Virus record (IMG/VR): IMGVR_UViG_2844443253_000009
Length of the DNA: 27,172 nucleotides
Strand: one strand, 5' to 3'
DNA from: a virus
Lineage: Duplodnaviria > Heunggongvirae > Uroviricota > Caudoviricetes
Made by a program: the position numbers and the translations under genes. This document shows positions 19,732 to 20,041 of the stretch, piece by piece (the stretch's first letter is position 1; each line of letters opens with the position of its first letter). Under the pieces are notes generated by a model. The model ran no database searches. It had not been told where the DNA came from and saw nothing but the letters and a program-made list of their open reading frames with translations.

Positions 19732-19806
19732 TGGAGCGGGCAGCGGGAATCGAACCCGCATCATCAGCTTGGAAGGCTGAGGTAATAGCCATTATACGAT
19801 GCCCGC
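19732..19806 (-). tRNA. tRNA-Gly (anticodon UCC)
   Basis: 75 nt: GCGGGCATCGTATAATGGCTATTACCTCAGCCTTCCAAGCTGATGATGCGGGTTCGATTCCCGCTGCCCGCTCCA. Cloverleaf with T-loop GGTTCGATTCC, anticodon loop CTTCCAA and encoded CCA. Appears identical to E. coli glyT as remembered. Confidence 0.85.
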
Positions 19807-19809
19807 ATA

Positions 19810-19885
19810 TGGTGCCGACTACCGGAATCGAACTGGTGACCTACTGATTACAAGTCAGTTGCTCTGCCTGCTGAGCTAAGTCGGC
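19810..19885 (-). tRNA. tRNA-Thr (anticodon UGU)
   Basis: 76 nt: GCCGACTTAGCTCAGCAGGCAGAGCAACTGACTTGTAATCAGTAGGTCACCAGTTCGATTCCGGTAGTCGGCACCA. Anticodon loop CTTGTAA. Differs from the host thrU sequence as remembered. Confidence 0.85.
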
Positions 19886-19887
19886 GC

Positions 19888-19964
19888 TGGCCCACCACCG
19901 AGGACTCGAACCTCGGACCGTCAACTTAGAAGGTTGATGCTCTATCCGGATGAGCTAGTGGTGG
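19888..19964 (-). tRNA. tRNA-Arg (anticodon UCU)
   Basis: 77 nt: CCACCACTAGCTCATCCGGATAGAGCATCAACCTTCTAAGTTGACGGTCCGAGGTTCGAGTCCTCGGTGGTGGGCCA. Anticodon loop CTTCTAA. Non-host-like acceptor stem beginning with C. Confidence 0.8.
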
Positions 19965-19965
19965 T

Positions 19966-20041
19966 TGGTGGCCCTTGCTGGACTTGAACCAGCGACCTGG
20001 CGATTATGAGTCGCTCGCTCTCACCACTGAGCTAAAGGGCC
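19966..20041 (-). tRNA. tRNA with CAU anticodon: tRNA-Ile2 (lysidine)-like, elongator Met not excluded
   Basis: 76 nt: GGCCCTTTAGCTCAGTGGTGAGAGCGAGCGACTCATAATCGCCAGGTCGCTGGTTCAAGTCCAGCAAGGGCCACCA. Closely resembles E. coli ileX/ileY as remembered. Confidence 0.8.

Follow-up and report, generated by a model that had tools for sequence, protein, structure and literature searches.

The 27,172-nt IMG/VR record IMGVR_UViG_2844443253_000009, from a virus of the Caudoviricetes (this whole stretch is called the window below), carries on its minus strand at 19732-20041 four tRNA genes packed into one array within an ipaH-bearing lambdoid prophage. We found that these tRNAs read codons enriched in ipaH and in the phage genes, and that a promoter-like sequence conserved among related arrays lies directly ahead of them. 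We consider it probable, though well short of certain, that the array is a functional polycistronic tRNA operon carried as late-region cargo, and that it most likely gives lysogens of Shigella and enteroinvasive Escherichia coli (EIEC) a constitutive supply of minor tRNAs for A-ending codons.

ARAGORN, run on the whole window, called exactly four tRNAs, all on the minus strand (Table 1). Every one belongs to Rfam family RF00005 according to its covariance model, with scores of 60.5-71.2 bits against a gathering score of 29 and E-values of 6e-14 to 5.6e-11, which places the four calls far above chance level. In 5' to 3' order the genes are separated by A, GC and TAT (1, 2 and 3 nt). All four fold into complete cloverleaves with 7-nt anticodon loops, U33 and an encoded CCA, and structural oddities are limited to two, the non-pair A27/C43 in Ile2 and the first pair C1-G72 in Arg. 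An earlier note, made from the sequence alone, had given the number, anticodons, strand, coordinates and spacing of these tRNAs exactly, and both programs accepted the cloverleaves on which it had staked its call. At a relaxed Rfam threshold, positions 19000-20300 contained no further credible RNA. The existence of the cluster is not new, as the same four genes are annotated in EIEC RefSeq genomes.

Pairwise identity counts against the K-12 tRNA genes showed how close each tRNA is to its host counterpart. The Gly tRNA is identical to glyT (75/75), as the earlier note had supposed, so this copy can add dosage only. The Thr tRNA matches thrU at 74/76 positions, the differences being U16C and U20C, both in the D loop, and its anticodon arm is the same as the host's (cloverleaf numbering). 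The CAU tRNA was closest to ileY (71/76, 93%) and ileX (69/76), compared with 53/78 (68%) for the elongator genes metT/metU and 48/78 (62%) for the initiator gene metZ. It shares with ileX and ileY the acceptor pairs C4-G69 and C5-G68, where metT instead has U4-A69 and A5-U68; these are the two pairs that, as Ikeuchi et al. reportedly found in 2005, let TilS separate tRNA-Ile2 from tRNA-Met. A CAU anticodon on an ileX/ileY-like body with both pairs marks the gene as a tRNA-Ile2, predicted to be of the lysidine type, and rules out an elongator or initiator Met tRNA; of the two identities first proposed for it, Ile2 was upheld and Met was not. PGAP labels the same gene tRNA-Ile in EIEC genomes. 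Its anticodon stem has four pairs, the host having G27-U43 at the position of the non-pair, and it lies one position away from the commonest phage ileZ-type allele among the alleles tabulated.

The Arg tRNA, in contrast, matches argU at only 59/79 positions and has the acceptor strand CCACCAC and A20. It is the sole foreign member of the array, the other three being host-like; the suggestion that all but Gly are unlike the host was thus right for Arg and wrong for Thr and Ile2. By these comparisons, the module consists of a phage-specific part (ileZ and an anticodon-switching scaffold, described below) and a near-verbatim copy of host thrU and glyT. The mosaic origin that had been proposed is borne out in this form, as a phage-specific Ile2/Arg half joined to a host-derived Thr/Gly half.

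Promoter and array family

A putative sigma-70 promoter stands directly upstream of the array, with 9 nt (20050-20042) between its -10 hexamer and G1 of tRNA-Ile2. A consensus scan reports it in an overlapping register, TTTGCA-18-TATTAT at 20080-20051. We examined its conservation in 68 distinct upstream sequences of ileZ-led arrays, among the matches listed. Both TTG at -38 to -36 and T followed by TATTAT at -16 to -10 were present in 84-93% of them; TATTAT fills the -10 window in 55/68, and the hexamer at -38 to -33 starts with TTG in 57/68. Beyond -39, further upstream, agreement falls to ~40-65%, and the DNA farther upstream is unrelated between arrays, being the 3' end of a methylase gene, a terminator abutting the -35 or other DNA. 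The best score in the scan (10/12) went to a candidate inside the array, TCGGCA-16-TATAAT at 19818-19791, which we regard as a chance match because its TATAAT is the D arm of glyT and is present in the host gene too.

With a single conserved promoter ahead of the array and spacers too short to hold another, the four genes would be co-transcribed, which agrees with the single precursor proposed from their spacing. The arrangement suggests that the array is expressed independently of Q, the antiterminator encoded upstream, and we infer that it would be transcribed on its own in the lysogen. The late, Q-dependent expression assumed in the earlier note is not what we found evidence for: taken with the missing lysis and head genes (described below), the private promoter points to constitutive expression.

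To place the array among its relatives, IMG/VR and one genome per species were searched with an ileZ-specific 39-mer, IMG/VR was searched again with the Thr allele of the window, and ARAGORN was run on each match, giving at least 134 ileZ-anchored and 96 Thr-allele-anchored loci. The census appears to comprise a small set of related architectures. Among the matches listed there were about 63 loci of the 933W type, Ile2-Arg(UCG)-Arg(UCU), about 30 with Ile2, a gap of ~100 nt and Arg(UCU), about 20 with Ile2-Lys(UUU)-Thr-Gly, and about 26 with Thr-Gly alone. The arrangement of the window, Ile2-1-Arg(UCU)-2-Thr-3-Gly, was found in 54 IMG/VR contigs, in Shigella flexneri SFBU1023 and in EIEC genomes. 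Within the set of complete E. coli genomes this exact four-gene version is confined to ipaH-positive genomes: it occurs in 10 of 5426, and those are the 10 genomes heading the ipaH-prophage (EIEC) list, one of them carrying it in a different prophage backbone. S. flexneri SFBU1023 has both an Arg-type and a Lys-type array.

The second slot of these arrays holds Arg(UCU), Arg(UCG) or Lys(UUU), and the three kinds of tRNA align without gaps. In their shared cloverleaf 97.2% of cells are paired, six pairs have changes on both sides (compensatory), and the covariation score lies above all 500 shuffles and all slid controls. The anticodons cut across stem types, as the GCCAG stem occurs with both UCG and UCU and the TCAAC stem with both UCU and UUU. 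This pattern argues that slot 2 is one maintained scaffold on which the anticodon has switched among UCU, UCG and UUU. As the window has the UCU form, an AGA reader is kept even though argO, the third gene of the 933W type, is absent. The slot-2 gene called tRNA-Lys(UUU) (UMNK88, 3246-3322, and about 20 other loci) has this Arg scaffold and C33 rather than the near-universal U33; in strain 52F4 it is left uncalled by PGAP.

Across 29 distinct Ile2-Arg-Thr-Gly loci, the mean diversity per site is 0.013 for the array itself, rising to 0.22 for the promoter stretch and to 0.34 for each flank, and homology between related prophages breaks off at 20042 and 19731, the ends of the array. The low diversity and the position of these breakpoints indicate that the array moves and persists, with its promoter, as a cassette. 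One IMG/VR locus (L225, 4860-5537) has Ile2-Arg-Thr-Gly running into host glyT, 6 nt, thrT and tufB, and the 444 nt that start with glyT are 100% identical to K-12; such a junction implies homologous recombination between the prophage Gly gene and chromosomal glyT, and hence a chromosomal rearrangement. The array might accordingly be viewed as a substrate for recombination or integration, offering host-identical or phage-shared DNA for module exchange, satellite attachment or rearrangement. The exact coincidence of the breakpoints with the array ends, the fusion in L225 and the use of tRNA-Ile2 genes as integration sites by PICI satellites (PMC10111431) are all in keeping with it. We find it very improbable, however, as recombination would be a consequence rather than a purpose and would leave the conserved promoter, the compensated cloverleaves and the choice of anticodons unexplained.

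Several loci in the census depart from the common forms. In one IMG/VR contig (L180) the Gly slot has a mutated anticodon loop, so that it is called Val-UAC, and an acceptor-stem deletion; in another (L202) a 5-nt insertion in the Gly anticodon loop leads to a call of Arg-UCU. In arrays with Thr-Gly alone (L140, L142, L144 and others), a TATTAT-like -10 lies ~60 nt upstream of tRNA-Thr, and after it comes a hairpin element of ~55 nt, GGTTCC...GGAACC (-18.5 kcal/mol, z = -2.6), in the place that Ile2 and slot 2 occupy in the window. This element may be a small RNA that has escaped recognition, or what is left of a tRNA.

Codon supply and counter-defence

In E. coli the tRNAs that read AGA, ACA and GGA are minor and encoded once each (argU, thrU and glyT), and the AUA reader is encoded twice (ileX and ileY). 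We tabulated these four codons in the window against 40 K-12 core genes, a sample in which AUA, AGA, ACA and GGA together make up 16.0 per 1000 codons. The corresponding figures were 56.5 per 1000 in ipaH (odds ratio 3.7, p = 3e-9), 35.9 in 15 tail genes (odds ratio 2.3, p = 2e-14) and 56.3 in Q, RusA and orf91 (odds ratio 3.7, p = 2e-7). AUA, AGA and ACA were each significantly enriched when taken singly. The expectation that ipaH and the phage genes would be rich in the cognate codons was therefore confirmed, at 2.3 to 3.7 times the K-12 core. The set of rare codons named in the earlier note left out GGA; this codon does have a minor, single-copy tRNA and a modest enrichment in tail genes, but no significant one in ipaH. 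The codon data fit codon compensation, which is the standing view of the tRNAs of Shiga toxin (Stx) phages (PMC7946995).

A route from the array to this supply can be proposed. The private promoter, TTGCAG-17-TATTAT, would drive a precursor of ~315 nt with a nearly leaderless 5' end. RNase P would then cut the 5' end of each tRNA, leaving a trailer of 1-3 nt on the tRNA upstream, and exonucleases would trim the trailers to the encoded CCA, both as in the established E. coli pathway. TilS would turn C34 of the first tRNA into lysidine, so that AUA is read as Ile. In an intact phage, Q-modified polymerase from the late promoter PR' would also read through the terminator tR' and the array into the lysis genes. 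In the window, deletion has removed the lysis and head genes and insertion sequences (IS) interrupt the early region, so that the private promoter would be the only plausible source of expression. The effect would be extra copies of four minor U34 or lysidine tRNAs, for AUA, AGA, ACA and GGA, of which the host has one or two genes each. This could relieve the translation of acquired genes rich in A-ending codons, namely the phage's own, ipaH and, if the argument is extended, those of the AT-rich invasion regulon.

A number of points weigh against a constitutive codon supply. The promoter and its expression are putative, the former being recognised by its consensus match and its conservation; moreover, a leader of just ~1-3 nt would be unusual among RNase P substrates. 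The enrichment of GGA is weak (odds 1.6, p = 0.012 in the tail genes; p = 0.32, not significant, in ipaH), neither ACA nor GGA is a truly rare codon in E. coli, and the K-12 baseline is a 40-gene sample. Nor does codon supply explain why the sister arrays have a Lys(UUU) tRNA, whose codon is the commonest one for Lys. Recent spread of the array, or gene conversion from host thrU and glyT, could account for its low diversity in place of selection, and the decayed copies in L180 and L202 mean that retention is not universal.

Recent literature makes counter-defence a serious alternative for the Thr tRNA. The array, above all Thr(UGU), might replace host tRNAs cut by the defence nucleases of rival mobile elements (P2-Old, PARIS AriB and Gifsy-1 HepS), with the D-loop changes making the phage Thr tRNA a poorer substrate than thrU; we regard this as possible but unlikely. 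P2-Old causes a lambda infection to abort by cleaving the tRNA-Thr(UGU) of the host at the paired CNG motifs of its anticodon stem, Thr(UGU) tRNAs from phages give rescue, and escape goes with an altered CNG motif at 28-30 / 40-42 and a shortened anticodon stem (PMC12445682). Sensitivity to Old is, however, set by the anticodon arm, and overexpressed host thrU protects little or not at all (PMC12445682). The arm of the window Thr tRNA is that of the host (A27-C-U-G-A31 / U39-C-A-G-U43) and keeps both CNG motifs, so the escape feature is absent from it and was found only in a different allele, G42U/U43C (CATCAGG for CAGTAGG). That allele loses the 3' CNG motif and breaks the top two pairs of the anticodon stem, which fits the escape rule; it occurs in EIEC RMDEC332 (L002, 9161-9236) and several IMG/VR loci, on both C16/C20 and U16/U20 backgrounds. 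The four-pair anticodon stem of Ile2 is shortened as well.

AriB, like P2-Old, has tRNA-Thr(UGU) as its foremost target. The features to look for in a tRNA that escapes AriB are a changed U39 or A41 in the cleavage site, or U16C in the D loop; in tRNA-Lys, U16C 'significantly impaired' cleavage, and the AlphaFold 3 model puts U16-U17 in the second active site (PMC12409363). The secondary targets of HepS include Thr(UGU) (PMC13043305). The window Thr departs from thrU precisely at U16C and U20C, and in sister arrays the partner of Thr(UGU) is a Lys(UUU) with C16, in which G39-U40-U41 replaces the AriB site U39-C40-A41. On the other side, the AriB site U36-A-A-U-C/A41 is intact in the window Thr, and the effect of the U16C that it carries was measured in tRNA-Lys and not in Thr. 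Few tRNA positions are under less constraint than 16 and 20, and two U-to-C transitions there are what neutral drift would be expected to give. The Gly tRNA, being 100% host, cannot be an escape variant, and in Lys-type arrays Thr is plain thrU in 10/25 copies, so Lys and Thr have not been jointly 'hardened'. The Thr(UGU) of phage T5 was considered as a precedent for U16C and excluded, as it keeps U16 and changes position 39, C16 being found in T5 Lys only.

A broader version can be stated, which we hold to be doubtful: that lambdoid late-region arrays are primarily anti-tRNase cassettes against P2/P4-borne Toprim nucleases (Old and PARIS). A constitutive U16C/U20C Thr would blunt recognition by AriB, G42U/U43C alleles would escape Old, slot 2 would switch its anticodon to replace whichever tRNA is attacked locally, and a domesticated array would also protect translation in Shigella and EIEC.

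Prophage context

The array sits downstream of a lambda-type antiterminator gene, as the earlier note had placed it. The Q protein matches Pfam family PF06323 (Phage_antiter_Q) over profile positions 1-217 of 220, with 300 bits and E = 9.7e-90, and is therefore full-length; its stop codon (20218-20220) lies 176 nt before the first tRNA, and the RusA gene is directly upstream. A terminator scan of the gap between Q and the array found a tR'-like intrinsic terminator, and a CCCGCCGCCGAGCGGG-T run likewise precedes the sister arrays. Folded alone, the hairpin of the window is weak (-8.2 kcal/mol, z = -0.4). A promoter scan between the Q stop codon and tR' reported no PR' site at threshold. The same stretch gave a faint Rfam match to isrK, a family of Hfq-binding small RNAs, at 20130-20201 on the minus strand (E = 0.5; 17.4 bits, the gathering score being 50); this isrK-like stretch may represent a short leader RNA initiated at PR', or chance.

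Table 1. Positions of the tRNA array, its promoter and other features of the window
Feature	Coordinates	Strand	Description or evidence
tRNA-Ile2	19966..20041	-	CAU, lysidine type (predicted), ileZ homologue; ARAGORN, Rfam 71.2 bits
tRNA-Arg	19888..19964	-	UCU, phage-specific argN scaffold; ARAGORN, Rfam 60.5 bits
tRNA-Thr	19810..19885	-	UGU, thrU-like with U16C and U20C; ARAGORN, Rfam 69.8 bits
tRNA-Gly	19732..19806	-	UCC, identical to host glyT; ARAGORN, Rfam 64.9 bits
Putative sigma-70 promoter	20051..20079	-	-35 TTGCAG 20079-20074, 17-nt spacer, -10 TATTAT 20056-20051
tR'-like intrinsic terminator, Q/array gap	20130..20150	-	hairpin CCGCCGCCGAGCGG 20150-20137, seven T 20136-20130; terminator scan
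Lambda-type antiterminator Q	20218..20913	-	longest ORF 231 aa, GTG start; PF06323
Non-coding leader, array-to-holin link in intact relatives	19058..19731	-	98.8-99.5% identity to L001, L002
IS110-family transposase gene	17836..19032	+	Pfam PF01548, PF02371
Gene FI	17572..17171		PF14000
Tape-measure gene, split into two ORFs	11265..14337	-	
Ail/Lom outer-membrane protein gene	4834..5433	-	full-length
ipaH	852..2603		
IS3-family copy	21805..22623	+	early side
IS3-family copy	26004..27172	-	early side
SPFH/Band 7 protein gene, then ORF6N-domain protein gene	23121..24741	+	early side

In intact relatives the array lies between Q (or a DNA methylase gene) and a class II holin gene, to which it is linked by a leader that holds no annotated coding sequence in either of the two relatives compared (L001 and L002). 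Terminator-like hairpins occur in this leader at 19473-19454 and 19118-19092, the latter with 10 pairs and a T run (-15.9 kcal/mol, z = -3.2). These hairpins, chiefly the second, would bar transcripts of the private promoter from the lysis genes. Homology to the intact prophages reaches 19058 and ends there, 7 nt short of the start codon of their holin gene. Where those relatives encode holin, lysozyme, terminase, portal and protease, the window has an IS110-family element in place of the holin-to-head genes, and the array now adjoins gene FI.

The tape-measure gene is split into two ORFs, and two IS3-family copies lie on the early side. Having lost its lysis and head genes and with a broken tape-measure gene, the prophage is defective, unable to lyse or package, yet its Q-tRNA segment is intact. 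Lambda-like tail genes lie between ipaH and the Q-tRNA region. The window is ~97% identical to the ipaH prophages of EIEC genomes, and its identity to S. flexneri SFBU1023 is 99.55% over 8 kb, IS insertion included. The window also has other genes that look like cargo: beside the tail fibre gene lies one for an Ail/Lom outer-membrane protein, and on the early side an SPFH/Band 7 protein gene is followed by an ORF6N-domain protein gene.

The state of the prophage raises the question of whether the array is an inert passenger, useful to the ancestral phage and now a neutral relic, unexpressed or without fitness effect, whose decay is pending. Such a relic would sit well with the split tape-measure gene, the IS110 deletion and the IS3 copies, with the mutated array copies elsewhere (L180 and L202), and with the >99% identity to SFBU1023 over 8 kb, which leaves too little time for selection to be visible. 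Against it, the cloverleaves, CCA ends and promoter are all intact beside broken protein genes, the same array is kept in several prophage backbones of EIEC and Shigella genomes, and the flanks vary far more than the array itself. We judge a relic to be improbable, and an operon supplying minor tRNAs to the lysogen remains the reading we prefer.

If the operon is expressed, it would raise the dosage of thrU, glyT, argU and ileX/Y in Shigella, and the yield of type III secretion system effectors could change; such arrays would then offer a simple genetic handle on codon supply versus counter-defence.

Comparison with known systems

Clusters of tRNA genes downstream of Q have long been known in Stx phages. 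Our literature search on ipaH-prophage tRNAs with rare codons, and on ileZ-argN-argO, found no matching paper in the library searched, and a comparative paper on pR' makes no mention of tRNAs. What is new here is the placing of the ipaH-prophage array in the ileZ-argN-argO family and the finding that the tRNAs bring a private promoter with them into unrelated phage backgrounds; this implies that they are expressed in the lysogen and not just late in the lytic cycle. The Thr(UGU) gene, moreover, duplicates a tRNA attacked by three recently described anti-siphovirus nucleases and differs from the host copy at a site whose importance for one of these nucleases has been demonstrated. The kind of array is well known, so that the interest is modest; given the nuclease work of 2025-26, the notable parts are the private promoter, the anticodon-switching scaffold and the Thr allele.

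In duplicating a nuclease target, the window Thr(UGU) resembles the tRNA-Lys/Thr/Asn genes that T5 sets against PARIS and the phage tRNA-Thr6/Thr21 that act against P2-Old, and C16 in the D loop is common to T5 tRNA-Lys and the window Thr. The T5 tRNAs are highly diverged from the host, whereas those of the window are 93-100% host-like except for Arg. Unlike nuclease-resistant phage tRNAs, the window Thr keeps the host anticodon arm, which decides resistance to Old, and the AriB cleavage site.

The order of Thr and Gly is that of the host operon thrU-tyrU-glyT-thrT, which lies upstream of tufB in K-12. Many sister arrays have a Thr that is 100% identical to host thrU. The host operon, however, includes tyrU with spacers of 8 nt and 116 nt, whereas Thr and Gly of the window are 3 nt apart without tyrU, and the window has neither the thrT nor the tufB that follow in the host, L225 being the exception among the arrays. 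The host operon is part of the core genome and has another promoter; the array belongs to a prophage. That the cluster might be a core chromosomal tRNA operon, a possibility raised at the outset, is excluded, as the K-12 operon differs and the flanks of the array are Q and prophage DNA.

The Ile2-Lys(UUU)-Thr-Gly arrays (UMNK88, PhiR47_1 and vB_EcoS-689R5) share with the window the four slots, the 1/2/3-nt spacing, the promoter and the same Ile2, Thr and Gly genes. They differ at slot 2, with UUU, C33 and the discriminator U73 where the window has UCU, U33 and G73. Plain thrU is found in part of the Lys-type copies, as noted above, whereas the Thr of the window has its two D-loop changes. The Lys-type arrays come from enterotoxigenic, bovine and other E. 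coli, and the Arg(UCU) version from ipaH-positive EIEC and Shigella.

The closest known counterpart is the ileZ-argN-argO module of 933W-type phages, which we compared by aligning the array with that of the Stx2a phage F349 and with other E. coli prophage arrays. The equivalence of position that had been pointed out earlier holds, and the two prove homologous as well, in the ileZ allele, the argN scaffold and the promoter. They occupy the same place in the late operon (between Q/PR' and stx2 in Stx2 phages), begin with tRNA-Ile2 (ileZ), have a second gene on the same unusual scaffold (C1-G72, acceptor CCRCCAY and the same D and T arms), include an AGA reader, and have a TTGCAx-17-TATTAT promoter 9 nt upstream. 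The differences lie in the anticodon of slot 2, UCG in argN and UCU in the window, and in the third gene, where argO (Arg-UCU on a GCGTTGT scaffold) gives way to host-like Thr(UGU) and Gly(UCC). In this comparison argO and the Thr gene can be aligned with each other, on which we base no claim that argO derives from Thr. The spacers of the 933W type are mostly 7-9 and 13 nt, compared with 1-3 nt in the window, and those of the 933W-type array in our alignment (L009) are 1 and 13 nt. No toxin gene follows the array of the window, and its carrier is defective and bears ipaH. With the place, the leading ileZ and the argN scaffold in common and argO missing from the third slot, the window array is a four-gene variant of the ileZ-argN-argO module rather than the same array.

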